This document shows, one piece after another, positions 23,346 to 53,507 of a stretch of DNA of 64,000 bases (position 1 is the first letter of the stretch; every line of letters begins with the position of its first letter). Source of the DNA: Escherichia phage NJ01; sequence record NC_018835.1, one strand, 5' to 3'. The position numbers and the translations under genes were made by a program. Under the pieces are notes generated by a model. It was not told where the DNA came from, searched no databases, and saw nothing but the letters and a program-made list of their open reading frames with translations.

Positions 23346-23354
23346 TAAAAGAAA

Positions 23355-24594: not shown

Positions 24595-24604
24595 TATAAT
24601 ATCC

Positions 24605-25426
24605 TTATTCCCAAGTTTTTTCGAGCCACGACCAATCAAATAGGTCTTCCGGAGTCTGACCAACAAAGAGCAGCCGAGCATTCTCAAGCATCTTCTCTTC
24701 ATCTTCAGTATCGAACTTCTTATAATATTCCATTCGTACTATATGATACATGGTCCACTTGTCTGTAACACCAGCCAATAACTTAGCTGCTGCTTTCTTC
24801 CCTATTCCTTGACGTCGAAGCTGAAGCTTACCGCCCCACATAACTTCTTTACGTTCTCCACATCCGGGGATATTATCTGTACCATCTCCAACCAACATCT
24901 GATAGAAGAAGTTTTGCCATGAAACTAAATCAGATACATAGTGAGGAGGGACTTCTTTCTGTCTTTCTCCACAAGCCCAACGGTAGTGCCATCCGGGAGT
25001 TATCAACAAATCCTTGTCTCTAGTACAGATGATAGTGTTCTTATCCCTACGTTGCCTTTCAGCTAGTGCATCATCAGCCTCTCTCCCAAATACATCTATA
25101 TATTCATACTTACCTTTAATGTAATCACCAACGTTCTGCCAGTGAAAAGGTCTTTCTCCGGGAGGTCTGTTTGCTTTGTAGTCTTGCTGCTTAGCAACAT
25201 CAAAACGGAAGTTACCGCCTTCGCTGAAGTAGAACACAACCTTACTGCAACCTGAGCGAGCAATGATAGTATCTATCTTGTACTGAAGTCGTTCAATCAT
25301 GAAATTGTAATCAACTGGAACACGTCCTGTGTCAAGAAAGGGATGCTCCTGAGTAAGAGCACCCACTTCATATCGAAGAACGTCAGCATCCACTATAGCT
25401 ACTTCAGGGAGCTTAACGTCTTCCAT
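24605..25426 (-). CDS. 5'-3' exonuclease / flap endonuclease (FEN family)
   Basis: 273 aa; VGDGTDNIPG motif typical of Pol I-type 5' nucleases. Confidence 0.8.
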   Translation of the reverse strand: MEDVKLPEVAIVDADVLRYEVGALTQEHPFLDTGRVPVDYNFMIERLQYKIDTIIARSGCSKVVFYFSEGGNFRFDVAKQQDYKANRPPGERPFHWQNVGDYIKGKYEYIDVFGREADDALAERQRRDKNTIICTRDKDLLITPGWHYRWACGERQKEVPPHYVSDLVSWQNFFYQMLVGDGTDNIPGCGERKEVMWGGKLQLRRQGIGKKAAAKLLAGVTDKWTMYHIVRMEYYKKFDTEDEEKMLENARLLFVGQTPEDLFDWSWLEKTWE

Positions 25427-25427
25427 A

Positions 25428-25954
25428 TTATTCTCCTAACAGCTTACGAATTTCACTACGGAAATTATCATACTCTTCAGGGTATTCAAACCCGCATTCG
25501 AGAAGAGCATAATGAACAACCTTCAGCAAATCCTGAACCTTATTCTTATCTTTGTGTCGATAAGCGTATTTGATCATATTGGTTTGTTGGAAGTTCAACT
25601 GAGGGTTTGCATGATAAAATTCAACAGGCTGAATGATTTTAGATTCAGGGTTATAGTGTGCACCACCAACCATAGTGTCTAAAGCTGGACTCCTTTTGCT
25701 GGTTTGTTCAGTTGTAGCTTTAAAGCTGACTACAGGAACAGAGGAATAAATTGGATACTCTTCACCTACTGGCGGCTTTACCATCAACTTTTTCATTGCA
25801 AATCGAATTTCTGTATCAGAGGAACATGAAGAGATTTCTTCAACAGATTTACGATAACTGTCAATAACTGCACGTAGCATGGAGACTGTCTTAGTCTTCT
25901 CTTTTAACTTCTCTGTTAATACAATAACTTCTGCTCTTTTGGATTCAAACTCGG

Positions 25955-25964
<10 letters not shown>
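25428..25964 (-). CDS. hypothetical protein with DUF3310-like C-terminal region
   Basis: 178 aa; AHYNPESKIIQPVEFYHANPQLNFQQTNMIKYAYRHKDK pattern recalled from DUF3310 phage proteins. Confidence 0.4.
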
Positions 25965-27248
<1,284 letters not shown>

Positions 27249-27492
27249 AATGCATCTCTTTATAAATGGTTTCCGTGTTCTTCTTCCAGCTAGATAAACC
27301 GGTAAGAACTCTCTGAGCAACTTCATCAGCTGCCTTACTTCTTTCAATCTCTAACTCTTGTTGATGTTTCTCTTTGTCTAGATTACTGCTGTCTGTTTGA
27401 TATTCGTTAAACTTCATACCACCAAAGAATACAAGAGCTGAGAAAACGATAAACCCTAAGTTATCACTTAACGTGTTTTGCATGTTGTCTCC

Positions 27493-27519
27493 AACGAAAA
27501 AAGCCACCCGAAGGTGGCT
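27493..27519 (-). terminator. intrinsic terminator (minus strand)
   Basis: agccacc-ttcg-ggtggct hairpin followed by TTTTT on minus strand, immediately upstream of spanin RBS. Confidence 0.55.
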
Positions 27520-27540
27520 AAGCTATAACAAGGAGAGTTA

Positions 27541-28287
27541 TTAGAATGGGCTATCGTTGTCGTCTTCGTAAGTAGAAGCAGGCTCTCTATCAATCGTAGG
27601 GATTGAAGGAGTAGCTTCTTTCTGTTCTGTCTCAGAAGCACGAGTAATTTCACGACCAGCCAGAGGCATGTTCTTAGCGTCATTAGCTTGAGTAAGCAGG
27701 TTGCGCTGGAACGGGAACATCAGTTGATAGGATGCTACGTTCTCATCGGTTTCAGCATACGGTTCGAAGAATACCAGAGGACTACGAGCTTCACCAACTG
27801 CTGCACGATATTTGGTTGGGATTGGAGAAATGGTTTTGATGGAGTTTTTAACTTCACCAGCTTTATTAGTGTAAGAGTTAACCAGAATGTTGACAGGCTG
27901 ACCTAACAGTACATCCTTAAACCAAGACAGATCACCTTTCAGTGCTTGAATGCTTGGGTCAATCATCTTGCAGAGATCAAGGATACCAGAGTTCTTAGCT
28001 CGTGGGTTTACATCATAGCTCTTGAACTGGCAAGCAGGACGTGGTTCTAATGCCTTACCATCGGAATCTTTACCAGTAGCATCAACACCAATCAGCTCGA
28101 AAGCCAAATCCATACGGAAAGCTGGATTCTTAGGAGTTACTGCTTTGGTCTTCGGGTCAATCCAAGGGTCACGATTGTGAACACCCAAACCTACTACACG
28201 AACAATACGTGCTTCGTACTCGCCATCAGGGATAATGTCGTAGTTGGATTTACGAGAAGAAGTTGCGATAGTTGGAATCATAGACAT
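27541..28287 (-). CDS. ssDNA-binding protein, T7 gp2.5-like
   Basis: 248 aa; acidic C-terminal tail ending DDNDSPF (cf. SSB DDDIPF); N-terminal region resembles gp2.5 start. Confidence 0.55.
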   Translation of the reverse strand: MSMIPTIATSSRKSNYDIIPDGEYEARIVRVVGLGVHNRDPWIDPKTKAVTPKNPAFRMDLAFELIGVDATGKDSDGKALEPRPACQFKSYDVNPRAKNSGILDLCKMIDPSIQALKGDLSWFKDVLLGQPVNILVNSYTNKAGEVKNSIKTISPIPTKYRAAVGEARSPLVFFEPYAETDENVASYQLMFPFQRNLLTQANDAKNMPLAGREITRASETEQKEATPSIPTIDREPASTYEDDNDSPF

Positions 28288-28344
28288 ATTTTAATTTCCT
28301 TATTTAATTTGAAAGATTGTTGCTCTCTTTGAGCGGTTATGTAT

Positions 28345-28355
28345 AATATACATTA
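28345..28355 (-). promoter_or_regulatory. TAATGTATAT-like motif on minus strand upstream of SSB gene
   Basis: Reverse complement of + strand aatatacatta; ~55 nt upstream of SSB ATG. Confidence 0.35.
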
Positions 28356-28418
28356 CGCTTATACCGATAAGAGTGCTATATAATATAAGTATCTTTGGTA
28401 GTAGATATAACACATTAG

Positions 28419-28429
28419 TAATGTATATA
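28419..28429 (+). promoter_or_regulatory. orphan + strand TAATGTATATA motif in AT-rich intergenic region
   Basis: Identical to motifs at 2047 and 18879 but no + strand ORF downstream. Confidence 0.3.
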
Positions 28430-28703
28430 TTGTATAGCTGATAAAGTTATTGCAGGCTTGTATATTGGGCAATTCACAGAATCCCTTGCAAGTACCGAAG
28501 GGCAGGAGCCACCTGCGAGATAAAAATAGAGAATTAAGGAATCCTTGATTTAGGTTGTAGGGACTCCTAGGGACTTTGATTCTCTATTTAAAAGAATATT
28601 AATTACTTACTACCTAAATAATTAACTAACTTACTTAAACCAAATTCAAGAATAATAGATAAAAAGATTATTCCTAAGAAAGCTAAAAAGTAAAGTATAT
28701 AAG

Positions 28704-28868
28704 TTACCATTCAAGTAAACCTTTAAAGTTAGATTGTTCTACTATTCGCTGATAACGAAGATTAGAATCAGCTTGTTTCTTTAACATCTCATTATATTGG
28801 TCTCTGATAGAGTCTTTATAAACTACAGGTTCTTTAAATAATGAGATCTTGTTCTTTTCTTCTTTCAT
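28704..28868 (-). CDS. hypothetical protein
   Basis: 54 aa; internal ATG with AGGAAGG SD. Confidence 0.35.
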   Translation of the reverse strand: MKEEKNKISLFKEPVVYKDSIRDQYNEMLKKQADSNLRYQRIVEQSNFKGLLEW

Positions 28869-29337
28869 CGAAAACCTTCCTAATCTCTTGCAGAGAAACA
28901 GCTTTATAGTTAATTTGCTCCATTGATGTACAGAAATATCTCCAATCATCAATTACATGATTATGTGTATGAGCATAAATATTAAACTTCCCTCTCATTT
29001 CATCAGTGTGAATAGGAATGTGAGTTATCCAAAACTCTTTATACTTATAATCACCAGAGATTCTACGAAAGACTTTCATCATATCAGGGAGAAGTTCTAA
29101 CCTATCATGGTTTCCTAAGACCAGATGCTTCTCTCCTTTCACTTCAGCGATAATATCAAGGGCATACTTTTCAAATACCCAATCACCAGTAAAGAAGATT
29201 TTATCACGTTTGGTTACGTGGTCAAAAGCAGCCAGAATTGCTTTGTCATGTTCTTCGATGTTTTTAAATTGCTTACGAAAACTACAGATGTTGCGATGGC
29301 CTAAGTGACCATCTCCTGCAAAATAAACTTCAGCCAT
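28834..29337 (-). CDS. metallophosphoesterase (calcineurin-like)
   Basis: 167 aa; GDGHLGH, GDWV, GNHD and HTH motifs. Confidence 0.75.
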   Translation of the reverse strand: MAEVYFAGDGHLGHRNICSFRKQFKNIEEHDKAILAAFDHVTKRDKIFFTGDWVFEKYALDIIAEVKGEKHLVLGNHDRLELLPDMMKVFRRISGDYKYKEFWITHIPIHTDEMRGKFNIYAHTHNHVIDDWRYFCTSMEQINYKAVSLQEIRKVFDERRKEQDLII

Positions 29338-29346
29338 AAAGACCTC

Positions 29347-29829
29347 TTAAATAGTTAATTTGTGATCTTCCTCCGCTCTGTTTCTAACAGAGACGGCTTC
29401 CTCTAGGGTTGAGAAAGTTCCTAGGTATTTAGTTTTACCCTTAATGTGGATATTGGCTATGTACTTCCCTCTTGAATTGAGGTATACACCCTTAGCCCCT
29501 GATGTGTTGTTAGAGTTCAAACCCTTGTTCCAAGAGTTATTCTCGTTGTTAACTTCTCTAAGGTTGCCTATGGAATCATTGGAAGGGTTTCGATCAATGT
29601 GATCTATTTGATCTTTAGGTAAAACGCCATTAGCAAAATACCAAATAACGTGGTATCTGTAAATGGCTCTTCCTTTCAATCGAATAAGCACTCTTCCATC
29701 CTTTTTTAAAGTTCCTGCCTCATCACCCCGCCTGCATTTTGTTCCGTTGTGAATTCTCCAGAACACTTTCCCAGATGATAAATCACAAACAAAGAACTCA
29801 TCCAGAAGATCTTCTATCATATCATGCAA
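29347..29829 (-). CDS. HNH homing endonuclease with AP2 DNA-binding domain
   Basis: 160 aa; IDHIDRNPSNDSIGNLREV HNH motif; C-terminal AKGVYLNSRGKYIANIHIKGKTKYLGTFSTLEEA AP2-like. Confidence 0.75.
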   Translation of the reverse strand: MHDMIEDLLDEFFVCDLSSGKVFWRIHNGTKCRRGDEAGTLKKDGRVLIRLKGRAIYRYHVIWYFANGVLPKDQIDHIDRNPSNDSIGNLREVNNENNSWNKGLNSNNTSGAKGVYLNSRGKYIANIHIKGKTKYLGTFSTLEEAVSVRNRAEEDHKLTI

Positions 29830-30038
29830 CCATCACAAGTAAGGTCTCCAAGAAGGGACAGTGATAACAAACGAGACTGCTCATCACTATACAGTTGATC
29901 AATCTCTTCTTTAAGTTTTGCCAATTCCATAAAGTTAATAAGCTGTCCATGTTCGAGACAGTCTGTTTTCAATACGAATAAAACATCAGCGTCTGTTGAA
30001 TCTTCACTTGAATATTTATCAATGTATTCCATTTTCAC
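29817..30038 (-). CDS. hypothetical protein
   Basis: 73 aa ORF in coupled minus-strand array. Confidence 0.35.
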   Translation of the reverse strand: MKMEYIDKYSSEDSTDADVLFVLKTDCLEHGQLINFMELAKLKEEIDQLYSDEQSRLLSLSLLGDLTCDGCMI

Positions 30039-30187
30039 CCCTATCTATTATGACCAAGACTTAGCTGTTACTTCAACATACGTTTTAACTTCACCTTTCA
30101 ACACCTCCTGAGAAGCGTTTGCACTCTCTTCAGAGTGATGTACAACGGTGATCTCTTTCTTTCCAATCTTATAAGTGTGAATCCAAA

Positions 30188-30370
30188 TCATGATACTTCC
30201 TTAATATCAATTAGTTCATAGCTACATCCTGCATCTTTGCAAGATTGCTCCAATTTCTGTGTTGCCTCTATTGGGTTTTCGCCATCAACTACCTCTTTTT
30301 TACAAGAGGCTACTACGTTATAGGCATCAGTCCAAAATCTACTTTTATACTCAATTAGATAATATTTCAT
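30188..30370 (-). CDS. hypothetical protein
   Basis: 60 aa; start ATG overlaps upstream stop (ATGA). Confidence 0.35.
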   Translation of the reverse strand: MKYYLIEYKSRFWTDAYNVVASCKKEVVDGENPIEATQKLEQSCKDAGCSYELIDIKEVS

Positions 30371-30546
30371 CGAGATGTTGTCCTCCCCCAATCTTTTACG
30401 TAGCATCGACCGTTAACCCACTTTGTCTCTGATTTAAACTCTTGAGACAGCCTCACTTCACAGTCTTCTCTACTGGCATCCCCTCCGATATCAATCAGAT
30501 ACAGGAATAGAGCTATACCTAAAGTCCAAAGGATTATCTTCTTCAT
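30367..30546 (-). CDS. small membrane/secreted protein
   Basis: 59 aa, below track cutoff; N-terminal MKKIILWTLGIALFLYLIDIGG hydrophobic segment; ATGA overlaps both neighbours. Confidence 0.4.
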   Translation of the reverse strand: MKKIILWTLGIALFLYLIDIGGDASREDCEVRLSQEFKSETKWVNGRCYVKDWGRTTSR

Positions 30547-30941
30547 CGAATCACCAGAGGCTCTTCAGAGTACACAGGAGCGGCTATTTCTACAGGAGGT
30601 GCTGCCCTAAGGTCATTAAGTCTTACACCCTTCAGCATCCCGTCTAGGTGATCTTTCTTAGGGATTCCAACAGGGAAGTCGTCAATCCAAATATCTACAA
30701 AGAAACCTAGCTGACGACATACATCATCCTTCTGAACACCATTGCAAAAGATGATAGGAATCTGCAAACACTCTGCATCAATCTTAATGTCGTGATTATC
30801 GTACCCATTAGGCTCTGCAAAGCGATAAGTTACAAAACGTACATCATAACCTTTGGCTTGCATTAATGCCACCACAGAGCGCCACAGCTTCTTATCTGAG
30901 GTGTAAGTATCATCGTAATCTAAACCAATATTCATATCCAA
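30543..30941 (-). CDS. HAD-superfamily phosphatase-like protein
   Basis: 132 aa; N-terminal IGLDYDDT matches DxDxT motif I. Confidence 0.5.
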   Translation of the reverse strand: MDMNIGLDYDDTYTSDKKLWRSVVALMQAKGYDVRFVTYRFAEPNGYDNHDIKIDAECLQIPIIFCNGVQKDDVCRQLGFFVDIWIDDFPVGIPKKDHLDGMLKGVRLNDLRAAPPVEIAAPVYSEEPLVIR

Positions 30942-30949
30942 ATCCTTTA

Positions 30950-30976
30950 GACAAGAAAAGCCGCCCTAAGGCAGCT
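30950..30976 (-). terminator. intrinsic terminator (minus strand)
   Basis: agctgcc-ttag-ggcggct hairpin followed by TTTCTTG on minus strand. Confidence 0.5.
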
Positions 30977-30982
30977 CTTTAT

Positions 30983-31159
30983 TTAGTCGGTCACTTTAGC
31001 TTCAAGTGCTTCATTTTCGATACTCAAGTCAATCACTACACCAGTAAGCTCAACAACTGCTTGGCGAAGGGCATCTTTACCCATAGAGTGTACTTGAGTT
31101 AGGAAGAAAGCTTTACCTTCTTCGGTGGACAGGGTTTCTTTTAATTCAGAAGCAGTCAT
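30983..31159 (-). CDS. hypothetical protein
   Basis: 58 aa, below track cutoff; AAGGAA-type SD; followed by terminator. Confidence 0.4.
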   Translation of the reverse strand: MTASELKETLSTEEGKAFFLTQVHSMGKDALRQAVVELTGVVIDLSIENEALEAKVTD

Positions 31160-31168
31160 TGATATTCC

Positions 31169-31363
31169 TTATGTTATGTTATAAATTCGCATGATTGTAC
31201 CGCCATTGGCTTCAATAGCAGCAACCATTTGGTTTCGTTCTTCATCTGTGTAAACTAACACACTTCTAAACTCACCAGTTGCATCAGTATAAAGGATGTT
31301 GTATTTCGGAGGCGGCTTACGGTAGATACCTTCCATCATTCTTTCTCCTCTCGTTCTTTCCAC
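31169..31363 (-). CDS. hypothetical protein
   Basis: 64 aa track ORF; true start may be internal MMEGIY. Confidence 0.35.
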   Translation of the reverse strand: MERTRGERMMEGIYRKPPPKYNILYTDATGEFRSVLVYTDEERNQMVAAIEANGGTIMRIYNIT

Positions 31364-31519
31364 AGTTCAGCAAGTTCTAAATAAAACTCAGCTTCATCAG
31401 GACGTCCTTGTTCATTACAGATGGCGCTCTGACGATAACACCAATCCGATGGCATCTCTTCCACTTCAATCTCCTTGTTACGAACCAATCAATAAGAATA
31501 GTTCATTCGTCTTATTTAT

Positions 31520-31711
31520 TCACTCTACCAATGCAGGTACTTCTATCCTTTTAACTGTGAATGTCTTGTTTGGAAACTTTCGAACTAGCTCTGCTGCTTT
31601 GGTTATTGCTAAGTTCTCTGTCTCAAAGATACACAGTTGACCATTTAATGCTACGAGAGTGGAGCCACCGCTGAAGACGGCCCAAGATTCATAATAACCT
31701 TTAACACTCAT
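31520..31711 (-). CDS. hypothetical protein
   Basis: 63 aa immediately downstream of DNA polymerase gene. Confidence 0.35.
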   Translation of the reverse strand: MSVKGYYESWAVFSGGSTLVALNGQLCIFETENLAITKAAELVRKFPNKTFTVKRIEVPALVE

Positions 31712-31719
31712 ATTTTACC

Positions 31720-33564
31720 TTAGTGTGTATGCATCCAGTTAAGTCCAATCTGACAATCAGATGCCAGAGGACATTCCATGTTCAAATACTCACCAGCTTT
31801 CTTAACGCAAAGCTCAGTGTGCTCTTTGAGTTTCTGTACATCATTACGATTCACTGAGAACTGGCCCTCATCGTGCATGTCAATTACCTTCGCACAGCGA
31901 ACTCCATCTTTCTCAATCCACTTGTTAAGGAACATCATAGCATATTTCATAACAACAGCACCAGCGCATTGCAGGAGTGTGTTAAGAGCTTTATGAACCA
32001 TAACCTTACCAGTGGCATCTCGTCTCATTGTAATCTTACGACCATCAACACCAATCAAGTATCCTTGAGCAGCTTTCTCTGTCATACGATCAATGAGGAT
32101 TGCAATACATGGGTTCTCTGCCAAGAATCGTGCTCGCATCACTGAACCTTCGTCAGCCCCACCACCTACAATTGAACCGAGCTTAGCGTCACCAGCACCA
32201 TAGTTGAATGCGTAGATAAACGTCTTAGCGTTGTCACGAGTAGGAAGACCAGCAAGTTTCTGGTTGTGGGAGTGAATATCACCTTCAAGGAGGATATCAC
32301 GATACATAATAGCAGAAGCTAAACCACGCTCTGCCAGAGCTTTCTTAGCTGGATTGTTCTCTTCAATTGCTTCAGCAAGCATATCCCTACACTCTTTAAT
32401 GAGGTAGTGTGCAAGCATACGCAATTCTAATCCAGAACCATCATACCCTAAGAATACTTCTTTACCAGCGGGTATGTAATATTTGTAAGCACCTACAGGT
32501 TTATCTTTCTTCCCCGGCTTACCTTTCTCGTAAATTACGTTAGTACCTTTTCGTATATAACAACCATCAGGAACAACGTTAGTAATAACGAAAGGACGAG
32601 AGTGATCACCATCTGAGTTACAGTCAGACTCAAACAAACCGCGACACTCATGACCAAACAAACCACGGGAGGGAATATTAACCACGATACGATGTTTGAA
32701 TCGAAAAGTCGGCGTAGCACAGCTGTTAGCTTCTGCCGAAAGTTTACCATCTTCGCGTTCCTTTGCTATGAGTCCACTGATAAGACCTAGCCTGTGAGCC
32801 GCTACAACGCGTCTCTTAAGCAAACTTCCGACACTCCCTAGCTCACCCCCTAACCCTTCTTCAAGAGTCTCCTCGAGGTTTGTAGGAGCTGTAGGCCACT
32901 TGTTTGAGGTAGCTAGTGCTATCTTAATCTCATCAAAAGTGATAGGTCTACGTCGGTTAGGATTTAAACCTAAACCAAATACATAAGCCTTCATGTAGTT
33001 CTTAGTTTTAAACCTAAAATGCTTCTCTAAGAACTTCCTAATATCAGCGTCAACCATCTCGGCTGTCTGCTTCTGTTTAGCATTACCTCTCATCCAAGCT
33101 GAATACCACGCTTGGTATGTTCCATACTTTCGCATATCTTTCTTGATTTCAAAAGTATTCCAAGGTTTCTTTGATACGTTAAACTCTGGAGGAAGAAAAC
33201 CCTCATCCATAAGGGCTTCTTTAACTCGTGCATCTTTCGATGGGTCAAAGTCCACGTATTCAACACAGGTGAATGCTCCACCAATGTCTTCTCTCTTAAG
33301 ACCAACTCTATCACAATAGGCTTGAGGCCACTTCTGTAAAGCTCCAGACTTCTTAAATGGCTTCATATAAGTAGAGCCATCTAATCTCATCTTAGGTAAG
33401 AGAGGAATCAGTTCTTTGTCAATATTAACAATAATCTCTTTAAGGAGGTGAACATACCACCGAGCATTTCTTCGGTTGAAACTCACTCCGTGCTTCGCTT
33501 GCTTAGAGATTATATCAGCGACAGTCATCTCTGTCAAAAATGGGAGAGCGTCCGGGTTGCTCAC
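31720..33564 (-). CDS. DNA polymerase, family A (polymerase domain only)
   Basis: 614 aa; motif A DGSGLELRMLAHY, motif B RDNAKTFIYAFNYGAG, motif C MHDE. Confidence 0.85.
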   Translation of the reverse strand: MSNPDALPFLTEMTVADIISKQAKHGVSFNRRNARWYVHLLKEIIVNIDKELIPLLPKMRLDGSTYMKPFKKSGALQKWPQAYCDRVGLKREDIGGAFTCVEYVDFDPSKDARVKEALMDEGFLPPEFNVSKKPWNTFEIKKDMRKYGTYQAWYSAWMRGNAKQKQTAEMVDADIRKFLEKHFRFKTKNYMKAYVFGLGLNPNRRRPITFDEIKIALATSNKWPTAPTNLEETLEEGLGGELGSVGSLLKRRVVAAHRLGLISGLIAKEREDGKLSAEANSCATPTFRFKHRIVVNIPSRGLFGHECRGLFESDCNSDGDHSRPFVITNVVPDGCYIRKGTNVIYEKGKPGKKDKPVGAYKYYIPAGKEVFLGYDGSGLELRMLAHYLIKECRDMLAEAIEENNPAKKALAERGLASAIMYRDILLEGDIHSHNQKLAGLPTRDNAKTFIYAFNYGAGDAKLGSIVGGGADEGSVMRARFLAENPCIAILIDRMTEKAAQGYLIGVDGRKITMRRDATGKVMVHKALNTLLQCAGAVVMKYAMMFLNKWIEKDGVRCAKVIDMHDEGQFSVNRNDVQKLKEHTELCVKKAGEYLNMECPLASDCQIGLNWMHTH

Positions 33565-33580
33565 TTTATACTCCTTTAAA

Positions 33581-34003
33581 TTATTGGTAAATCAAATCCG
33601 TAAATGCTTGATTGTCTTCTATCACATCTAACACGGTAGCTTCATAACTGTAAGCCCTAACCGCCCCGTTAACAACTATCCGAGGAGTAGGTGGAGGTGG
33701 TGCATGGTTAGCCCTAGCTTCACGAGGTTGCTCTCGTACTAGATGAGCCACAACCCTTTGGTTGGCGACCTCTTCTCTTTCTCGGATAGCTCTCTGGATG
33801 TAAGCCAACTTCATACCCCAAGCTTCTTCAAACTCTTGAGGGTGCTTATCACTGATAACCACATACTGACGTTCAGGGATACCAGAGCGAATCTCTGATA
33901 ATAGCTCATGGAACAAATCCAGTTCATGTTCAGTGAGATTCATTTCGATATCATCCCACTTGAGAACTAAGAAACGGTTTTGGTGTCTAGCTGGTAATGG
34001 CAT
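33581..34003 (-). CDS. hypothetical protein
   Basis: 140 aa; start GGAGTAGAATG coupled to upstream small ORF. Confidence 0.4.
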   Translation of the reverse strand: MPLPARHQNRFLVLKWDDIEMNLTEHELDLFHELLSEIRSGIPERQYVVISDKHPQEFEEAWGMKLAYIQRAIREREEVANQRVVAHLVREQPREARANHAPPPPTPRIVVNGAVRAYSYEATVLDVIEDNQAFTDLIYQ

Positions 34004-34166
34004 TCTACTCCACCTCTACTCTAACGTAAGTTCTCTCGCCAACATCATCTTTCCAGACCCATGCCTTGGCATCTTCTTCAGACTTAAAAGCTTTCACAAC
34101 GCTGTATCCACCTTCCCATTCATCACCGAACCAGCGCTGTCCTACGTAAACATATTCTTTCATTAT

Positions 34167-34442
34167 TTAACCTTTTGGGAATGGCATTAAAGATTCCATA
34201 GCAGATTTAATTTCGCTATTGATTCGAGCATCTCGATAAGAGATAAACTTACCTTTGCTATCTCGTAACATCACATGGGTTCTAGCTGTTACGTGGGGAA
34301 GTAATGTAATACTAGTTGGGATAGTGTCAATCCCTACAGAAAATTTGTCAATAGTCTTGCTTTCACTTAACAGATAAGACCAAGTTTGCTTCGGATGGTT
34401 AGGGTATGTGTCTCGAATTTGAACCATAGCTAACTTATTCAT
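34167..34442 (-). CDS. hypothetical protein (paralog of 34444..34695)
   Basis: 91 aa; shared C-terminal GKFISY...E..AVESLMPFPKG motif. Confidence 0.45.
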   Translation of the reverse strand: MNKLAMVQIRDTYPNHPKQTWSYLLSESKTIDKFSVGIDTIPTSITLLPHVTARTHVMLRDSKGKFISYRDARINSEIKSAMESLMPFPKG

Positions 34443-34443
34443 A

Positions 34444-34695
34444 TTAAACTCCTTTAGGGAATGGGATGAGGTTTTCTACTGCAACACGGAACTCTTTCTC
34501 TACGTTTTTATTCTTATAAGAAATGAATTTACCATCAGCCCCACGGAGGATTACGTTAGTACGAGCTGTTTTTGGGTTATGACCAATCTGGTTTGCAATA
34601 ATATTAGCAATGCCGTGGTTATTGGTAAATTTCCATTTAACCATACGATTGTTAGACATTACATCAATGATATTTACAGATTTTACAATAGACAT
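34444..34695 (-). CDS. hypothetical protein (paralog of 34167..34442)
   Basis: 83 aa; shared C-terminal motif ...AVENLIPFPKG. Confidence 0.45.
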   Translation of the reverse strand: MSIVKSVNIIDVMSNNRMVKWKFTNNHGIANIIANQIGHNPKTARTNVILRGADGKFISYKNKNVEKEFRVAVENLIPFPKGV

Positions 34696-34763
34696 ATTTA
34701 TTACCTAAGAAGTTTAATTTGGTTTATATAAAAGAAAAGGCCACCCATTTGGGTAGCCTTATA

Positions 34764-35081
34764 TTACGATGAGCTTAAAGCTCCTTTTCGTGCTCCAGCC
34801 GCTTTTCCAGCTCGATCACCACTTTTGCCGCCGTTTGAACGGTTTGAGCTGACTGATTCAACACGTAAGTTGCTTGACGCATTAGAGCCTCCAGACTTGA
34901 CAGCTCGTTTGTGTCCAACATCTTTACCTCTGACAGCAGCTTTTCCATCGCGCTTTTCAACGATGCGACGTGCACGGTGGCGCTGAGCATCTCCGCTCTT
35001 GCTACCAATTCCCGTTTCACCACGGGCAATTGCGGTACGTCTTTCTTGTGCATAATCTCTCTTTCCTACATGGTCTGCCAT
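34764..35081 (-). CDS. highly basic low-complexity protein (G/R/K/S/A-rich)
   Basis: 105 aa; strong SD AAGGAG 6 nt upstream; alternative overlapping frame 34775..35053 lacks comparable SD. Confidence 0.4.
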   Translation of the reverse strand: MADHVGKRDYAQERRTAIARGETGIGSKSGDAQRHRARRIVEKRDGKAAVRGKDVGHKRAVKSGGSNASSNLRVESVSSNRSNGGKSGDRAGKAAGARKGALSSS

Positions 35082-35137
35082 TTAGAACTCCTTAATATAT
35101 CAGTATACACTAAGGAGTATACATTATAAGTTACTGT

Positions 35138-35875
35138 TTAAGCTTTCTTTTCCATTGCTTTAACAATCGCCTTACAGAAACCAGAACGAACAATGTCATC
35201 TGATTCCCCATCTACTATCTCAGCGAACTCATACAGATCATGTTCATCAATAAAGTTAGTAGCCCAAGTAAGACCACTCTCACGACCACGCATATCATGC
35301 TGGTTAGTATCACCCATGCAGAACAGCTGAGAGGTCTCTCCCAATCGAGTCATGATTGAGAAGGCTTCATCTTTAGTGGTGTTCTGGAACTCATCTACGA
35401 TAACAATAGCATCATTGAAAGAACGACCACGGAGATACTCCAGAGGTACGAACTCAATATTACTGTTACCGAGCTGGCATTCATAGAACCCTTTACCATA
35501 TCGCTGAGTAATAACATCAATGATAGGCATCAAATATGGTTCAAACTTCTCACGCATCCCTCCCGGAAGCAACCCAAGAGAATTACCCATGCCGACCGAA
35601 GGGCGACTCAAGATAATCTTCTGAATCTTACCACTCTTCAGTGCATCGATAACCGTGGAAGTGATTACAAAGGTCTTACCACAGCCCGCAGGAGCGTCTG
35701 TGAACACAACTTGTTTAGTCTTGATAGCATTGAGCAGTTCAGACTGGAACTGGTTCTGAGGGACTACAGGCTTTGCTAAAACCACCTCTTCAAACTCGCG
35801 CTTACCCTTACGAGTGACAAGTGCTTCCCGACGAAGGTCTTTCCGTGATTCTTTCCGTGATTGACGACGACTCAT
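35138..35875 (-). CDS. phoH: PhoH-like ATPase
   Basis: 245 aa; Walker A DAPAGCGKTF and PhoH-like overall pattern. Confidence 0.8.
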   Translation of the reverse strand: MSRRQSRKESRKDLRREALVTRKGKREFEEVVLAKPVVPQNQFQSELLNAIKTKQVVFTDAPAGCGKTFVITSTVIDALKSGKIQKIILSRPSVGMGNSLGLLPGGMREKFEPYLMPIIDVITQRYGKGFYECQLGNSNIEFVPLEYLRGRSFNDAIVIVDEFQNTTKDEAFSIMTRLGETSQLFCMGDTNQHDMRGRESGLTWATNFIDEHDLYEFAEIVDGESDDIVRSGFCKAIVKAMEKKA

Positions 35876-36084
35876 TTACGCTCTCCAATTTCTTCGTAAT
35901 GACATTCAGTAGTTAAACAATCTTTACAGATTGCTGTATAAACCCTGACGTTAGTAAATCGTTTGTTCTTCCCTTTGGTTGGAGAGCCTTTGGCAAGCTC
36001 TCTGATAACCTTGTTACTTAAATGAAGGTTTGTCCCTTCACATCTAGAGCACTTCACCACAATGTCCATTCGGTAAGAGACCAC
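35872..36084 (-). CDS. small zinc-ribbon protein
   Basis: 70 aa; CSRCEG...CKDC Cys pairs. Confidence 0.4.
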   Translation of the reverse strand: MVSYRMDIVVKCSRCEGTNLHLSNKVIRELAKGSPTKGKNKRFTNVRVYTAICKDCLTTECHYEEIGERK

Positions 36085-36254
36085 AGAGAGTCACCTATGT
36101 GGGCATTGTCATTCCTGATGAGGTCTTTGATTTTATCAACATCAGTTAAGTGAGTCACATTCAAAATATCCTCAACATCTGGGGCATATTTAAATATGGC
36201 AACAATACTGTTGTGATCTTCAGCATATCTTTCTAGAACATAAACTACGCTCAT
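36054..36254 (-). CDS. hypothetical protein
   Basis: 66 aa ORF in coupled array. Confidence 0.3.
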   Translation of the reverse strand: MSVVYVLERYAEDHNSIVAIFKYAPDVEDILNVTHLTDVDKIKDLIRNDNAHIGDSLWSLTEWTLW

Positions 36255-36574
36255 GCGAAGTTAACCTCTTTATGAAGTCTGTAAACAGCTGTCGCCATAC
36301 AAGCAACAGCTTCGTTATGTGGGAGATGCATCCCTGTAGAACCATCCCAATCTTTGAACTCATTGTCAAAGACTCCGGTAGGCTCTGGATACAAGGCTTG
36401 CAACTCAACCAAATCGTTAGCAACTTGTTGCCATTTATCATCAGACCAGATAGGGTCATCCAACCAGTAATACAAATAGGAATGGATGATCAATTGCCTT
36501 CTGTGCCGATTAATTACTTCAGCGGGACTTATCTCACTTCCATTTGAAGTCCTAAATGTATTACTGTCAATCAT
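36251..36574 (-). CDS. hypothetical protein (weak resemblance to NAD-ligase N-terminal Ia region)
   Basis: 107 aa; HSYLYYWLDDPIWSDDKWQQVANDLVELQALYPE pattern; resemblance is by eye only. Confidence 0.35.
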   Translation of the reverse strand: MIDSNTFRTSNGSEISPAEVINRHRRQLIIHSYLYYWLDDPIWSDDKWQQVANDLVELQALYPEPTGVFDNEFKDWDGSTGMHLPHNEAVACMATAVYRLHKEVNFA

Positions 36575-36756
36575 TTCACAACCTTAAATTTGAATGTTGT
36601 TGGGTGATAATAATGCAACCTGTTAATGGTGTGCTTTGTTTCAAGATATATCCTACAAGAGTGACACATCACATGATTCAGACCAGTTACAGGATTAGGT
36701 TTAAAGTTGGCGATAGGCTTCTCTTTCTTACAGAAGCTACAGACTTTCTTTTCCAT
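36571..36756 (-). CDS. small zinc-finger protein
   Basis: Internal ATG with GGAGA SD; CSFC...CHSC motif. Confidence 0.35.
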   Translation of the reverse strand: MEKKVCSFCKKEKPIANFKPNPVTGLNHVMCHSCRIYLETKHTINRLHYYHPTTFKFKVVK

Positions 36757-36970
36757 CTTTTCTCCAGTGGTCAACGAACTGCTGAAACACTTTACGGTCA
36801 AATGTGAAATTACGAGCAATTCCGCATTCTCTAAAAGTGGCAGGCATATAATCTACATCACCTTCAGATGTATGACCATAGACTTGAATAAGCTTCTTAA
36901 TCTTATCCTTCTCTCTTCGAGGAAGCATTCTAAATGCCTCCTGAATATCTGTAATATGTTTTATCTTCAT
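36737..36970 (-). CDS. hypothetical protein
   Basis: 77 aa ORF. Confidence 0.35.
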   Translation of the reverse strand: MKIKHITDIQEAFRMLPRREKDKIKKLIQVYGHTSEGDVDYMPATFRECGIARNFTFDRKVFQQFVDHWRKDGKESL

Positions 36971-37116
36971 CAGAAATTCCTGCTAATCCTCTGAGTTGTG
37001 GGAACAGCAATATTCACATACTCCACAACAAGGGCAAATTTCTACACTTGGGTCATATGCATCATCAACTGTCATCCCACACTTGGTGCAGAACACATCA
37101 TCATCTTCTTCCAATA

Positions 37117-37773
37117 TTAACTCTCCAAAGTTTTCTTCAGAGCTGCCCACGAGATTGGGTAGAGTTTAGCCATCTCTTCATCCAGAGATTGAGCAAACAC
37201 TCGAACTTCATACTGAGCATGGGAGGATAGTCGCTGACGACACAACTCAAACCAGCCATACAAAGAACCAGTCCACACCCACTCAGTGATCATTCCCTGA
37301 GGAAGAACAAATCGGGCTTGTTCTGGTGCAACGAATTCAATCAACTTGTCATATGCTGCTAGAGAAGCTTCATATGCATCGTTAATCAACATTAATGCTT
37401 CAGCTCGTTCTCCATCGATGAGTTGAACCCCTGAACCTGCATGGAGGTCCGAAGGTCTCGCAAAAATCTCTTTAGGGATGAAGACTTCAACTGCTCCATC
37501 TTTATACCGCCGGGACATTTCGTTCCACGAGAATCCAACCTGATGCTTGCCCAACTGTCTCGCAATTGCGATAGGTGCTTTGCATCGGAAACTGACTTGT
37601 GGGTGTCGGAATGGAGTAACATGCTTCTCTCTTGCGAGGAAGTTGATGAGACGTTCATCACGTTCATTTAAATCACCTTCACGGGTTACGCCAAAGGAAA
37701 CTCGAGCTGCGTTTACTACGCTACGATCACTTCCCATAGCTTCGATTAATGTTGCTTGTAATTGTTCATTCAT
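37117..37773 (-). CDS. thyX: FAD-dependent thymidylate synthase ThyX homolog with divergent signature
   Basis: 218 aa; ThyX-like overall pattern (ARVSF..., KAPIAIARQ, ...SHAQYE) but expected RHR is KHQ. Confidence 0.7.
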   Translation of the reverse strand: MNEQLQATLIEAMGSDRSVVNAARVSFGVTREGDLNERDERLINFLAREKHVTPFRHPQVSFRCKAPIAIARQLGKHQVGFSWNEMSRRYKDGAVEVFIPKEIFARPSDLHAGSGVQLIDGERAEALMLINDAYEASLAAYDKLIEFVAPEQARFVLPQGMITEWVWTGSLYGWFELCRQRLSSHAQYEVRVFAQSLDEEMAKLYPISWAALKKTLES

Positions 37774-37788
37774 CCGTGAATTTCCTTA

Positions 37789-37998
37789 TTAATATTCTTT
37801 TACATAATAAACCACTAAGGTTCCCATCTCTGACAATGTTGATTTATGTAAGCTTACTTTACTATAAATCTTTGGGGCCATCTTAAGAGCCTTCTTAAAA
37901 CGGCGAGCATCTTTACGAGTAGCAAAGTGCTCTGTAACAGGTATAGCCGGGTCTTGGTAGAGGTAATATACCACCGTCCAATATTTTTTCATAATCAA
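37789..37998 (-). CDS. small protein, TRK.AR..KK paralog family member
   Basis: 69 aa; shares T.K.AR.FKK.LK motif with 39852, 40061, 40270 genes. Confidence 0.4.
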   Translation of the reverse strand: MIMKKYWTVVYYLYQDPAIPVTEHFATRKDARRFKKALKMAPKIYSKVSLHKSTLSEMGTLVVYYVKEY

Positions 37999-38267
37999 AC
38001 ACCTAGGGCAGTAGTTAAGAATGCTTTCAGGTTTGCTTCGGTCTGCATACCAGAGAGACTATAGTGTGCACCACTATTACGGTCAGGTACAACGAAAGCA
38101 GGGATGCTTCTTACACCATACTTAACAGCTTGTTCACGACCATCACCTTCAAGGATGTTAATCTCTTCTACTTCTACATCGAACTCCTTAACAACCTTCT
38201 CAAAGGTAGGAGCCATTGCTTTACATGGAGCACACTGATCACTATAAAACTTAATCACTTTAGACAT
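37995..38267 (-). CDS. thioredoxin
   Basis: Start at internal ATG with AAGGAA SD; CAPC active site (YSDQCAPCKAM). Confidence 0.75.
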   Translation of the reverse strand: MSKVIKFYSDQCAPCKAMAPTFEKVVKEFDVEVEEINILEGDGREQAVKYGVRSIPAFVVPDRNSGAHYSLSGMQTEANLKAFLTTALGV

Positions 38268-38268
38268 T

Positions 38269-38445
38269 CTATTCCTTGTTAATAAACAGGTTGATATGAC
38301 GTTGGGTAGCAGGAACAACAATAAAAGATTTATACTGACCTTTTGCTAAGTCATGAGCAATCTTCTTTGTCTGACCAAGACCCATCACACAGCCACTAAC
38401 AATAATGGCGTGTGCTTGCAACTCTTCAGGGAGTTTTAGTTTCAT
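38269..38445 (-). CDS. hypothetical protein
   Basis: 58 aa, below track cutoff; stop TAG overlaps thioredoxin SD/start. Confidence 0.35.
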   Translation of the reverse strand: MKLKLPEELQAHAIIVSGCVMGLGQTKKIAHDLAKGQYKSFIVVPATQRHINLFINKE

Positions 38446-38457
38446 TCTTCAGGTTCC

Positions 38458-38643
38458 TTACAGCATAGCAAGAATGATAATAAGAGGTAATGTTATAGCG
38501 AAATTAATAAGAACAGCGCTGCCTAGCTTGATAGCTTTAACATCCTCTTCTGATGGGTTTTCTTTAATTGCTAAATTTCGAGCTTTATATATAACAGTAC
38601 CAATTATTAACGACCACACGGCCCACACAATCAGTGAAATCAT
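38458..38643 (-). CDS. small membrane protein with two predicted TMDs
   Basis: 61 aa; hydrophobic-charged-hydrophobic layout; paralog of adjacent gene. Confidence 0.45.
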   Translation of the reverse strand: MISLIVWAVWSLIIGTVIYKARNLAIKENPSEEDVKAIKLGSAVLINFAITLPLIIILAML

Positions 38644-38652
38644 ATCAAACCC

Positions 38653-38832
38653 TTATGCAGTCAGGAGGTGAAGCAGGAATGGGATAACAACAGCTACGAC
38701 AACCATGATGGTTGATGCTGTTTGAATCTCACCTTTCTTGTCAGGGGTTTCTTCAATAAGCTTGCCAGAAGCCCAATAGATACCACCACCAATAAAGACA
38801 GCCCAAATACCCCATACGATTGCTGATAACAT
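38653..38832 (-). CDS. small membrane protein with two predicted TMDs (paralog)
   Basis: 59 aa MLSAIVWGIWAVFIGGGIYW... found by manual translation; SD AAGGAT; replaces track ORF 38694..38948. Confidence 0.45.
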   Translation of the reverse strand: MLSAIVWGIWAVFIGGGIYWASGKLIEETPDKKGEIQTASTIMVVVAVVIPFLLHLLTA

Positions 38833-38893
38833 ATATCTATATCCTTATAAATAAGTTCGCCCCACCTCGGGTTAGGAGACAGGGCGGAGGTTT

Positions 38894-47889: not shown

Positions 47890-49920
47890 TTAACCTCTAT
47901 TCAATGAACATTTAGGAGAATTACAATAAACTTGATTCATAGAACCAAGCGTACAACTTTCAGCATCGCGCCACGGAATCTGCTTAAAACACTCTGAGCA
48001 GTAGCCGAGGGTTGACCACATGGCTTTGGTGAAGTCAGTGCTTCGGTTTCCGTCGAAGCTGACAACAGTTTTGCGGAGAGCTGTTCGTGATTCAGGAAAC
48101 ACACCTGCTTTCTCAGCAGGTTCCTCCTTTTTTGGCTTAGTTGAGATTGCAAAAATACTGTTGCTACGTTTCTCAACATAAGCATCAACAACATCCTCCA
48201 GAGTGATGCCTGTCTGTTTCGCTGAGGAAGGTAATACAGTCATACGACCGATCATATCTTCAGTTACACGTAAAGCAAATTCAGGACGACGGGCGTTTGT
48301 TGTATCTGTTGCTTTAATCCAGACATAACCATCTTTGATCGTAGCATTAGATACCTTCTTCTTTACATCTACAGCGCAGACTTTACAGATATCTTCACCA
48401 CGAAGACGACTAAGTTCTTCATCGAACTCATTCTCCGTTTTAACTTCACCGCAGATTTCACAAACACCAATAGGAGTTTCCTCCTCTTCTTCATCTTTAG
48501 GTTTAGTCAAACCTTCCAGACATTCAGGGTGCCAGTAGCATTGATATGCGAAGACTGCTTTAGGTGCATCCTTCCAATCAATGTGTTTGTCACAACCACC
48601 GCAATCACCATGAGAGTGTGCTTCCCAGAATTTACGAGTGATAGTAACGCCATTCTTGTTGACGAAACTATCATTCATATCAAAAGGGATATCATCATCG
48701 AAGTCAGCAGTAGTAGACTCAGGCTCCTTTTTCTCCAGAGATGGGTCAACAAAACGACCTGCTGTGATTACTAAACGAACCATAGCATTAACTTCGGAGA
48801 TGCAGGATACTGTCCCACGGTAAACGATTTTAGGGTCTTTCAGGGCATCCTGATAAGCCTTAATGTCTACGTTATGAACATCGCCTTCAATATACTCTTG
48901 AGACTTCTCATCGTAGATATAACCAATCATCTTACCACGAGAAGGAACAGCACCAGCTGTTGCATAAGGAACAAACTCATGTGGTGTGATTTCCACAGTC
49001 ATGTCGCGGCGAATGTCAATGTTTCGATCGCTTGCGATTTTGTTTTGACTTACCACTGCGTTTCTTCGACGAACGTCTGCCGCTGTCACTCCCGGCTTCG
49101 TGTCGTAAGGATTGCTTGTACTGCTTTTTGAGGAACTTTGATAATTGCTTTGGCTGTAGTTGTTCGAGTAGTAATTGCCCCAACGATTGATTACCGTAAA
49201 AACCGGAAGCTCGTGGGCGACCTCTTCAACTAGAGTCATACTGTTGTTTGACATATCAAAGATATATTCTGTACCAACTTTACATTCAAAGTGCTCATCA
49301 ATTCGGTTTTTGTGAGACTTAGAACGCTTCAGAATCCACATCAACATGTCTTCTTCAGAAGCACCAAACCAATCTCTGTTACAACGTGCGAGATGGAAAG
49401 GACGCTCTTCATTACGGATGATATGAAGGCGGTTATCAGAAGCATCATGCCAGATTAAGGTGAAAGCACCATCCAGCTTTTGAATAGTCTCTGCTGCACC
49501 AATAGTGTTAATAGAGTGGCAGATGTTCTCACTGTCTACCTCGAAGTTTTTGCTGTCAGGTAACAGATCTTGGTCCATCAAGGTTCCATTATGAACCAGA
49601 GTGATGTTACCATGTTGGAAAGGATGGGCGTTCTTGGCGTTAACTGCACCTTTCGTTGCATGACGGCTGTGACCAACAATCCATGAAGGCGCTACAGTGT
49701 AAGCTGTTTCACCAGTGGTGTGTTTCTTGTACTCATCTTGAAGGATGAATGCGAAAGAAGGAAGTGCCTCTTTATAAGTGAAGACTTCCTTAGTGCTCTT
49801 ACGCTGACCAAAGATACCAGAGGAATGTTGCCCTCGGAATACCCCAGCATAAAAGAGTTGGTTAAATACGTCTAAATCAGTGCTTGACAGATTACCGCCA
49901 GCTAATACGATGCCACAAAT
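47890..49920 (-). CDS. class-II (Ntn) glutamine amidotransferase fused to Cys-rich zinc-ribbon C-terminal region; non-canonical start
   Basis: Frame open 676 codons; N-terminus (I)CGIVLAGG...FRGQHSSGIF...HSRHATKG matches PurF-type GATase; no ATG/GTG/TTG before Cys; track start 49581 is internal. Confidence 0.7.
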   Translation of the reverse strand: MCGIVLAGGNLSSTDLDVFNQLFYAGVFRGQHSSGIFGQRKSTKEVFTYKEALPSFAFILQDEYKKHTTGETAYTVAPSWIVGHSRHATKGAVNAKNAHPFQHGNITLVHNGTLMDQDLLPDSKNFEVDSENICHSINTIGAAETIQKLDGAFTLIWHDASDNRLHIIRNEERPFHLARCNRDWFGASEEDMLMWILKRSKSHKNRIDEHFECKVGTEYIFDMSNNSMTLVEEVAHELPVFTVINRWGNYYSNNYSQSNYQSSSKSSTSNPYDTKPGVTAADVRRRNAVVSQNKIASDRNIDIRRDMTVEITPHEFVPYATAGAVPSRGKMIGYIYDEKSQEYIEGDVHNVDIKAYQDALKDPKIVYRGTVSCISEVNAMVRLVITAGRFVDPSLEKKEPESTTADFDDDIPFDMNDSFVNKNGVTITRKFWEAHSHGDCGGCDKHIDWKDAPKAVFAYQCYWHPECLEGLTKPKDEEEEETPIGVCEICGEVKTENEFDEELSRLRGEDICKVCAVDVKKKVSNATIKDGYVWIKATDTTNARRPEFALRVTEDMIGRMTVLPSSAKQTGITLEDVVDAYVEKRSNSIFAISTKPKKEEPAEKAGVFPESRTALRKTVVSFDGNRSTDFTKAMWSTLGYCSECFKQIPWRDAESCTLGSMNQVYCNSPKCSLNRG

Positions 49921-49999
49921 TTTCTAATCCACCTGAAGGGTAAACCCTTTCATCTAATTAACCTTTAAATTGTGCCCCTTTGTCAGAGGCACCCATTGA

Positions 50000-51717: not shown

Positions 51718-51726
51718 GATAACCTC

Positions 51727-53497: not shown

Positions 53498-53507
53498 AAC
53501 TAACCTT

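Follow-up and report, generated by a model that had tools for sequence, protein, structure and literature searches.

The open reading frame (ORF) at positions 37117..37773 (minus strand) of a 64,000-nucleotide stretch of Escherichia phage NJ01 (NC_018835.1), referred to below as the window, encodes a homologue of the flavin-dependent thymidylate synthase ThyX in which both arginines of the family signature are replaced, RHR being read as KHQ. Sequence comparison indicated that KHQ, followed by an additional arginine after the catalytic serine (SRRY), is a conserved hallmark of a large ThyX branch, seen here only in viruses. The encoded protein is probably an active flavin-dependent thymidylate synthase whose phosphate- and flavin-binding shell has been rearranged. 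Its membership of ThyX by profile and fold was already known; what appears to be new is the failure of the signature at both arginines together with the loss of an arginine that binds the phosphates of flavin adenine dinucleotide (FAD), as a coherent, clade-wide set. The gene and the segments under discussion are as follows.

37117..37773, minus strand: thyX, a 218-residue flavin-dependent thymidylate synthase homologue of the non-RHR (KHQ/SRRY) viral subfamily, from Pfam, NCBIfam, an AlphaFold (AF2) model and the ratio of nonsynonymous to synonymous substitution rates (dN/dS)
37504..37548, minus strand: signature segment K76-H77-Q78-VGFSWNEM-S87-R88-R89-Y90, from direct reading and alignment to R78-H79-R80...S88-G89-R90-Y91 of Thermotoga maritima
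37540..37548, minus strand: KHQ codons AAG CAT CAG, within the signature
37504..37515, minus strand: SRRY codons, within the signature
37258..37260, minus strand: Y172 codon, aligned at the place of the FAD-phosphate ligand Arg165 (T. maritima) or Arg190 (Mycobacterium tuberculosis)
37231..37314, minus strand: segment from R154 (codon 37312..37314, equivalent to R147) to R181 (codon 37231..37233, equivalent to R174), these being invariant in 109/109 subfamily sequences and 80/80 IMG/VR loci

The ORF starts with ATG, with AAGGA located ∼9 nt upstream. Its only Pfam match was PF02511 Thy1 (E=1.4e-43, 149.4 bits against a cut-off of 24.8), which covered profile positions 1–190 of 191. The NCBIfam equivalog TIGR02170 thyX was matched with 128.8 bits (cut-off 87.9) and the PHROG thymidylate synthase with E=6.6e-63. 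The AF2 model had a predicted local distance difference test score (pLDDT) of 87.3 and a predicted template modelling score of 0.83, and a Foldseek search of the PDB with this model retrieved T. maritima ThyX entries (E ∼1e-17, template modelling (TM) scores 0.78–0.82). In pairwise HMMER comparisons, the ThyX of Thermus thermophilus (6j61) was matched with E=2.4e-31 and that of T. maritima (1kq4) with E=5e-25. By profile and fold the ORF is a full-length ThyX, and GenBank labels the gene as ThyX or thymidylate synthase. The window is that of a Kuravirus, a phiEco32-like coliphage of the subfamily Gordonclarkvirinae; its bases 36000–39000 showed 99.5% identity to Escherichia phage 172-1, and 97 phage records matched.

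The ThyX signature is R-H-R-x(7-8)-S, with a spacer of 7–8 residues. The ORF retains the His, the Ser and the spacing, and has both Arg replaced. Pairwise HMMER alignment with the solved ThyX enzymes placed the query 'arqlgKHQvgfswnemSrrY' over 'arqwfRHRia-synelSgrY', in which K76-H77-Q78 corresponds to R78-H79-R80 of T. maritima and the motif ends in S-R-R-Y instead of S-G-R-Y. The same register was reproduced by two MAFFT alignments of 111–127 sequences, and the T. maritima numbering agrees with that of the mutants named in PDB titles (H53, S88, R90, Y91, E144, R174). The original prediction had described a ThyX homologue that reads KHQ for RHR and holds no RHR elsewhere. The profile scores and the common register support the former, and a string search of the ORF, with zero occurrences of RHR, confirmed the latter. 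A misalignment, with the true motif lying elsewhere, is ruled out by the absence of the string and by the agreement of three independent alignments on one register. From the signature to the catalytic Ser the query has 8 residues, as compared to 7 in T. maritima and in the form RHRX7S quoted for the family (PMC2826268). Since RHR-bearing actinophage enzymes carry the same 8-residue spacer, the spacing falls within the canonical range and is not an anomaly.

The distribution of the signature showed that KHQ is not peculiar to this ORF, as had been supposed, but marks a large viral subfamily. Of the 120 nearest database proteins, which extend to 54% identity, 119 carry KHQ and the remaining one reads KSQ. 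Among the 150 best representatives of clusters at 50% identity, RHR was found in none; KHQ (69), KHK (15), RHT (10) and RHQ (6) were accompanied by other forms, including K/R-S-x and K-Y-x, and almost all motifs ended in SRRY. A scan of IMG/VR identified at least 591 viral relatives, and the motifs were counted in the best 80 loci (39–56% identity): KHQ in 62, KHK in 10, KHT in 4, KHM, KHE, KHS and RHT in one each, and SRRY in all 80. Across 43 homologues of 53–93% identity, K76, Q78, S87, R89 and Y90 were invariant, while H77 and R88 were at least 90% conserved. Conservation of the signature in hundreds of independent sequences rules out a one-off mutation or a sequencing error. The signature is shared by unrelated named phages, namely Escherichia phage ST32 (Chaseviridae), Aeromonas phage APT65, Vibrio phage 11895-B1, Roseobacter phage CRP-143 (an autographivirus), Pseudoalteromonas phage pYD6-A (Schitoviridae) and Rheinheimera phage Barba6A (KHK). 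The K-Y-x form was observed in the Bacillus phages Taylor and 280BB001 and in Streptomyces phage BoomerJR, and two subfamily members outside the 109-sequence alignment described below read KHR and KSR. The canonical RHR with S[G/A/Q]RY was identified in Thermus phage P23-45, mycobacteriophages L5 and ErnieJ, Gordonia phage Tanis, Ruegeria phage V13, cyanophage S-RIM44 and halovirus HCTV-5. In a neighbour-joining tree, built without bootstrap and with the non-RHR sample taken from the top matches, all non-RHR sequences formed one clade beside the T. maritima, Thermus-phage and actinophage enzymes.

Four of the relatives (P0122, P0135, P0187 and P0268) carried inteins (C...HN|S/C) inserted exactly between 'KHQxGF' and 'SWNE.SRRY'; inteins favour essential sites. 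In Vibrio phage pVa5, thyX was matched as two separate pieces, and an annotated HNH endonuclease gene lies under the match.

The residue changes were counted in the MAFFT alignment over 109 subfamily sequences, with 8 canonical sequences for comparison, and are given in T. maritima numbering. Position 78 was always basic (K in 91, R in 18), position 79 was H in 98 and S in 10, and position 80 was occupied by Q, K, T, H or V and never by R. Arg replaced G89 in 103 of the 109 sequences and Ser replaced N163 in 102, while R143 was changed to Pro in most of the subfamily. At position 165, Arg was present in 7 of the 8 canonical sequences as compared to none of the subfamily (Y/A/L/F/Q), and position 169 was also changed (N169 to E in the query). 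Three canonical basic residues have thus been lost and two gained, one being the Arg at position 89 and the other a K/R at position 43. In contrast, H53, Q75, E86, S88, R90, Y91, E144, R147, R174 and Q180 were invariant or nearly so. S88, R90, Y91, R147, R174, Q75 and E86 correspond to S87, R89, Y90, R154, R181, Q73 and E85 of the query, and R154, R181, Q73 and E85 were all kept in 79 of the best 80 IMG/VR loci. His53, which is H51 in the query, was kept in 107 of the 109 sequences, and a Ser/Thr was retained at the position of M. tuberculosis Ser71 (T55 in T. maritima).

The literature assigns these two sets of residues to different tasks. R174 activates deoxyuridine monophosphate (dUMP), with S88, Y91 and R90 assisting the one-carbon transfer (PMC8316439), and His53 stacks on folate and flavin (PMC11940539). 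The RHR triad, together with Ser71 and Arg190 of M. tuberculosis, hydrogen-bonds the phosphates and ribityl of FAD (PMC6514825); R78 faces N1/C2=O of the reduced flavin (PMC11940539), and R78 and R80 hydrogen-bond dUMP (PMC3498832). The claim that the RHR arginines contact dUMP and folate is therefore correct for dUMP, although their reported contacts are mainly with the FAD phosphates and ribityl, and no support was found for a folate contact. Of the arginines that contact the FAD phosphates, R80 has become Q78 and R165 has become Y172, while the charge facing N1 is retained as K76. The changed positions being phosphate and flavin ligands according to the literature, and the catalytic set being invariant, the alteration lies in the phosphate-binding shell and not in the part that recognizes and activates uracil.

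A further difference was observed in the clade formed by Gordonclarkvirinae and Chaseviridae, in which the flexible loop 'W-R-x-R-P-x3-K-Q-G-S' has become 'I-F-x-R-P-x2-L-H-x-G-S' (37440..37480, minus strand, residues 99–112). Most of the subfamily retains the 'WR...KQGS' residues, in a loop that resembles that of the T. thermophilus ThyX; the change is a second divergence, specific to the clade and located close to the substrate loop.

The gene evolves under purifying selection, with gene-wide pairwise dN/dS values of 0.06–0.18 among the thyX genes of Gordonclarkvirinae. The signature itself was followed at the codon level in the 80 viral loci. Codon 76 was AAG in 50 and AAA in 29, codon 78 was CAG in 33 and CAA in 29, and Arg88 was encoded by all six Arg codons. 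Synonymous change is thus saturated, and codons 76 and 78 each lie one transition from an Arg codon; yet Arg was found at position 76 in one locus and at position 78 in none. This demonstrates that Lys at the former position and a residue other than Arg at the latter are maintained by selection and not merely tolerated.

Taken as an active enzyme, the protein would convert dUMP, methylenetetrahydrofolate (CH2H4folate) and NAD(P)H to deoxythymidine monophosphate (dTMP). Its first signature position keeps a positive charge (Lys, sometimes Arg), which is required opposite N1/C2=O of the flavin for stabilising FADH-, whereas Arg80, Arg143 and Arg165 have been given up. The side chain of the nearly invariant new Arg after the catalytic Ser could reach the dUMP-phosphate pocket; this pocket can be filled in the PBCV-1 ThyX by the side chain that follows Ser88 (residue 89) (PMC3498832). 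R88 of the query is therefore a plausible stand-in for Arg80, as judged from the alignment. The set that activates uracil and transfers the methylene (R174, S88, Y91, R90, R147, Q75, E86 and H53) is untouched. The description of the ORF in the original prediction as a functional but divergent thymidylate synthase is, on the invariance of this set and the conservation of the gene, the reading that we favour, with ordinary dTMP synthesis as the most probable outcome.

Several points weigh against this reading. Three canonical basic residues are gone, among them R80, for which contacts with both dUMP and the FAD phosphates have been described, and R165, described as contacting the FAD phosphates. 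The confidence of the AF2 model is lowest in the motif loop itself (residues 71–90, pLDDT 64–69). No member of the non-RHR branch was present among the PDB matches, the best of which was an RHR enzyme, and no biochemistry, complementation or other description of a non-RHR ThyX was found among open-access papers, nor any usable account of RHR mutagenesis. Close relatives in 185,579 species genomes were limited to two contigs of 526 and 1983 nt, probably contaminating; with no cellular genome relying on a close relative, nature offers no proof that such an enzyme can serve as the sole thymidylate synthase. To these is added the unexplained restriction-modification resistance of the subfamily, discussed below.

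On the minus strand, the gene lies within an extended run of genes for replication and nucleotide metabolism. In a scan of 35000..42000, promoters did not exceed the shuffled expectation and no convincing terminator was found around thyX, which belongs to a long operon on this strand. Two genes of nucleotide metabolism are relevant to the proposed pathway.

40671..41204, minus strand: deoxycytidine triphosphate (dCTP) deaminase, Dcd (Pfam DCD E=3.5e-34; TIGR02274 equivalog, 107.7 bits, cut-off 92.8; PHROG E=2.7e-60)
25428..25964, minus strand: deoxynucleoside monophosphate kinase of the DUF3310 nucleotide-kinase type (PHROG 26149 E=8.8e-109; phrog_236 'nucleotide kinase'; Pfam DUF3310)

The dCTP deaminase had been proposed from the sequence, and both Pfam DCD and TIGR02274 agree; it is the ordinary upstream partner of a thymidylate synthase and does not point to exotic chemistry. 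We suggest a pathway from dCTP to deoxyuridine triphosphate (dUTP) by the phage Dcd, to dUMP by the host Dut, to dTMP by ThyX and to deoxythymidine diphosphate (dTDP) by the phage kinase, which would raise the supply of deoxythymidine triphosphate (dTTP) during replication of the 42% G+C genome in E. coli. The window has a G+C content of 42.2%, lower than that of E. coli. No ThyA, deoxyuridine triphosphatase (dUTPase) or second ThyX was found in the window (phmmer with the E. coli ThyA returned nothing), and the annotation of phage 172-1 holds no ThyA, dUTPase, ribonucleotide reductase or dihydrofolate reductase. This ThyX is the only thymidylate-synthase-like gene of the phage. ThyA was also absent from 905 kb of flanks of the 80 related loci; co-occurrence with ThyA, which would hint at a second function, was found neither there nor in the window.

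A thioredoxin gene (37995..38321, minus strand; Pfam E=2e-13, CAPC active site) is located two genes upstream of thyX, and in Rheinheimera phage Barba6A a glutaredoxin (Grx) gene adjoins thyX. Among the 80 related loci, Grx or NrdH was found in 3 and thioredoxin in none, and a dedicated redox partner for ThyX was dropped from consideration. By analogy with T7, the phage thioredoxin might serve the family-A DNA polymerase. Directly downstream of thyX, a small Cys-rich ORF (36983..37150, minus strand; …CTKCG…CPCCGVCEYCC…) is named a membrane protein in RefSeq and looks more like a zinc-ribbon peptide. Four paralogous ORFs of 65–69 residues surround thyX and dcd on the minus strand (37789..37998, 39852..40061, 40061..40270 and 40270..40467); they share the pattern M..W...TR..AR..K...Y-end and show 23–28% identity to the first copy.

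The residue changes also lend themselves to other explanations. The same reaction might proceed with a different handling of the cofactor, through another FAD pose, weaker binding, flavin mononucleotide in place of FAD, or a donor other than NADPH. This is possible but doubtful, and it refines the active-synthase reading without excluding it, its probability lying within that of the latter. Two of the three FAD-contact arginines of the PMC6514825 set are gone from the subfamily with the Ser/Thr kept, N163 is Ser in 102/109 sequences, position 169 is changed, and the three lost basic residues are set against the two gained at position 89 (R) and at T. maritima position 43 (K/R), all of which would fit such a change. 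On the other hand, K76 still supplies the charge at flavin N1, H77 is mostly kept, and the search for linked redox genes near thyX, with 3 of 80 loci and no thioredoxin, does not indicate a dedicated alternative reductant. A more radical change, in which deoxycytidine monophosphate (dCMP), uridine monophosphate (UMP) or another pyrimidine nucleotide is methylated in the manner of the ThyX-like UMP methylase PolB, is very improbable. The deviation of the signature is its sole support, along with the precedent of a ThyX paralogue with another substrate (4p5a, which we take to be PolB), matched with E=1.3e-16. The similarity to a bona fide thymidylate synthase is far stronger (T. thermophilus, E=2.4e-31), the genomic partner makes deoxyuridine nucleotides, and the context is a lytic phage module for replication and nucleotides and not a nucleoside-antibiotic cluster. 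The residues that read the substrate are also unchanged: R181, the equivalent of R174 that deprotonates uracil N3, is invariant along with R154, Q73, E85, S87 and R89. The altered pyrimidine specificity that had been offered as an option is not supported, Q75, E86, S88, R90, Y91, R147 and R174 being invariant in the query and in essentially all members. That the loss of RHR left an inactive and decaying relic, or a non-catalytic protein with a structural or regulatory role, is hardly credible. It would follow from the textbook view of RHR as universal and essential, but the dN/dS of 0.06–0.18, the invariance of the catalytic residues down to ∼40% identity, the maintenance of K and Q at their sites by selection in the face of synonymous saturation, and the existence of at least 591 viral relatives all argue against it.

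The remaining alternative concerns the phage DNA itself. Gordonclarkvirinae are described in a published study as remarkably resistant to restriction-modification, without a known modification pathway, and a covalent DNA modification is suspected (PMC11990801). A neofunctionalised ThyX might combine dUMP with a folate one-carbon unit into a modified nucleotide, such as 5-hydroxymethyl-dUMP, the exocyclic-methylene intermediate being hydrated and not reduced, or might shift the pyrimidine pool in another way. A non-canonical thymine analogue in the phage DNA would explain the broad resistance, and the enzyme would be the first of the ThyX fold dedicated to DNA base modification; we regard both the activity and this explanation as improbable. 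Apart from the reported resistance, the reading draws on the ThyX mechanism, which passes through an exocyclic methylene open to nucleophiles (PMC8989533), and on the restriction-site content of the window (1..64000). There, the avoidance of palindromic hexamers rose with their G+C content. Those with four G/C had a median observed/expected ratio of 0.19, as compared to 0.85 for non-palindromes (p=1e-8); the medians were 0.00 and 0.22 with six G/C, and 0.75 and 1.03 with two, while all-A+T palindromes were not avoided. CCWGG occurred 2 times where 73 were expected and RGGNCCY was absent where 32 were expected. Sites of BamHI, PstI, SacI, SalI, SphI and StuI were absent, whereas those of EcoRI (15) and EcoRV (31) were not depleted. 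Strong avoidance confined to G+C-rich palindromes, with EcoRI and EcoRV sites at normal numbers, could result from thymine-directed protection. The same avoidance, with that of CCWGG, shows that restriction enzymes have access to the DNA at G+C-rich sites, and the overall pattern would fit either a simple avoidance of sites or some protection of those rich in A+T. The termini of phiEco32, moreover, were mapped by restriction profiling and sub-cloning (PMC9965538); open-access papers otherwise yielded nothing usable on restriction digests of phiEco32-like DNA. The low probability is set by three further observations: the changed residues are ligands of the phosphates and flavin tail, with the one-carbon-transfer residues S88, Y91, R90 and R174 invariant; many unrelated phage groups with no reported DNA modification carry the signature; and the window showed no recognisable genes for downstream hypermodification or for dTTP exclusion (dTMPase, ThyA inhibitor, phage dUTPase).

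The same study guessed that deoxyuracil replaces thymidine, on the basis of the dCTP deaminase and a nucleotidyltransferase, ThyX being unmentioned in the passages concerned (PMC11990801). The conservation of ThyX under selection, with its catalytic set intact, speaks against such plain deoxyuridine DNA, and a functional-looking enzyme would narrow the search for the basis of the resistance. The nucleotidyltransferase, suspected of a role in DNA modification by the BASEL authors in these passages (PMC11990801), is a 470-residue protein (41214..42626, minus strand) encoded between the dCTP deaminase and the exonuclease subunit of the DNA polymerase. It had no match in Pfam or NCBIfam and only the PHROG of the same name; it contains a GGxVRD...DIDIF motif, and its C-terminal third looks of low complexity. 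The motif is reminiscent of the heads of CCA-adding enzymes or poly(A) polymerases. A 203-residue ORF (38894..39505, minus strand), annotated as a DNA binding protein in phage 172-1, shows a weak match to a ferritin/Dps-like domain (Pfam Ferritin E=2.9e-7); a Dps-like protein that coats DNA could also bear on restriction resistance.

Farther along the window lies a putative peptide or metabolite ligase cluster of the phiEco32 type (45129..54701, minus strand), which contains three ORFs without a Pfam match in addition to the following.

45129..45548, minus strand: gamma-glutamyl cyclotransferase-like gene
46250..47446, minus strand: 398-residue ORF, named S6 glutaminyl transferase (RimK-like) in RefSeq, no Pfam match
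47890..49581, minus strand: glutamine amidotransferase-like gene
50000..51103, minus strand: Amidoligase_2
51727..52533, minus strand: COOH-NH2 ligase type 2

RHRx7-8S has been treated as the defining and universal signature of ThyX, and an evolutionary study dropped the sequences that deviated too far from it (PMC2826268). Its arginines are credited with key parts in holding FAD and dUMP and in stabilising the reduced flavin. A large viral branch under strong selection does without two or three of these arginines, and phage ThyX genes will be undercounted by motif-based filters. As an instance of natural mutagenesis, the branch may show which contacts are dispensable and how the site might be re-wired, which has a bearing on the mechanism of ThyX, a drug target, and on inhibitor design. 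Should the enzyme prove ordinary in its activity, the result is a useful note on annotation and not a discovery.

Compared with known systems, the query is closest in kind to the canonical ThyX of T. maritima (TM0449, 1kq4/1o26) and T. thermophilus (6j61), with a fold similarity of TM 0.73–0.82 and ∼32–35% identity. It is identical to the T. maritima enzyme at H53, Q75, E86, S88, R90, Y91, E144, R147, R174 and Q180, and differs by R78K, R80Q, G89R, R143P, N163S, R165Y, N169E and a spacer longer by one residue. The actinophage enzymes of Gordonia phage Tanis ('RHRVGFSYNEQSGRY') and Mycobacterium phage ErnieJ share the 8-residue spacer and the 'VGFS.NE' core of the query ('KHQVGFSWNEMSRRY'); unlike the query, they keep RHR, SGRY and Arg165 and fall outside the non-RHR clade in the neighbour-joining tree. 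The subfamily members from named phages, which are annotated as thymidylate synthase, resemble the query in [K]-[H/Y]-x, S-R-R-Y, the absence of Arg at 165 and the invariant catalytic set, although their identity to it is 34–54%, and the Bacillus and Streptomyces forms have Tyr for His and a much longer spacer. The clade of the query (Gordonclarkvirinae and Chaseviridae) is itself set apart from most of the subfamily by the loss of the 'WR...KQGS' loop residues. The known phage route from a folate one-carbon unit to modified pyrimidine nucleotides runs through hydroxymethylases of the ThyA family (T4 gp42 for dCMP; the SPO1, ViI and M6 types for dUMP) (PMC8989533). These enzymes are unrelated in sequence and fold to the query, which matches Thy1/ThyX only.

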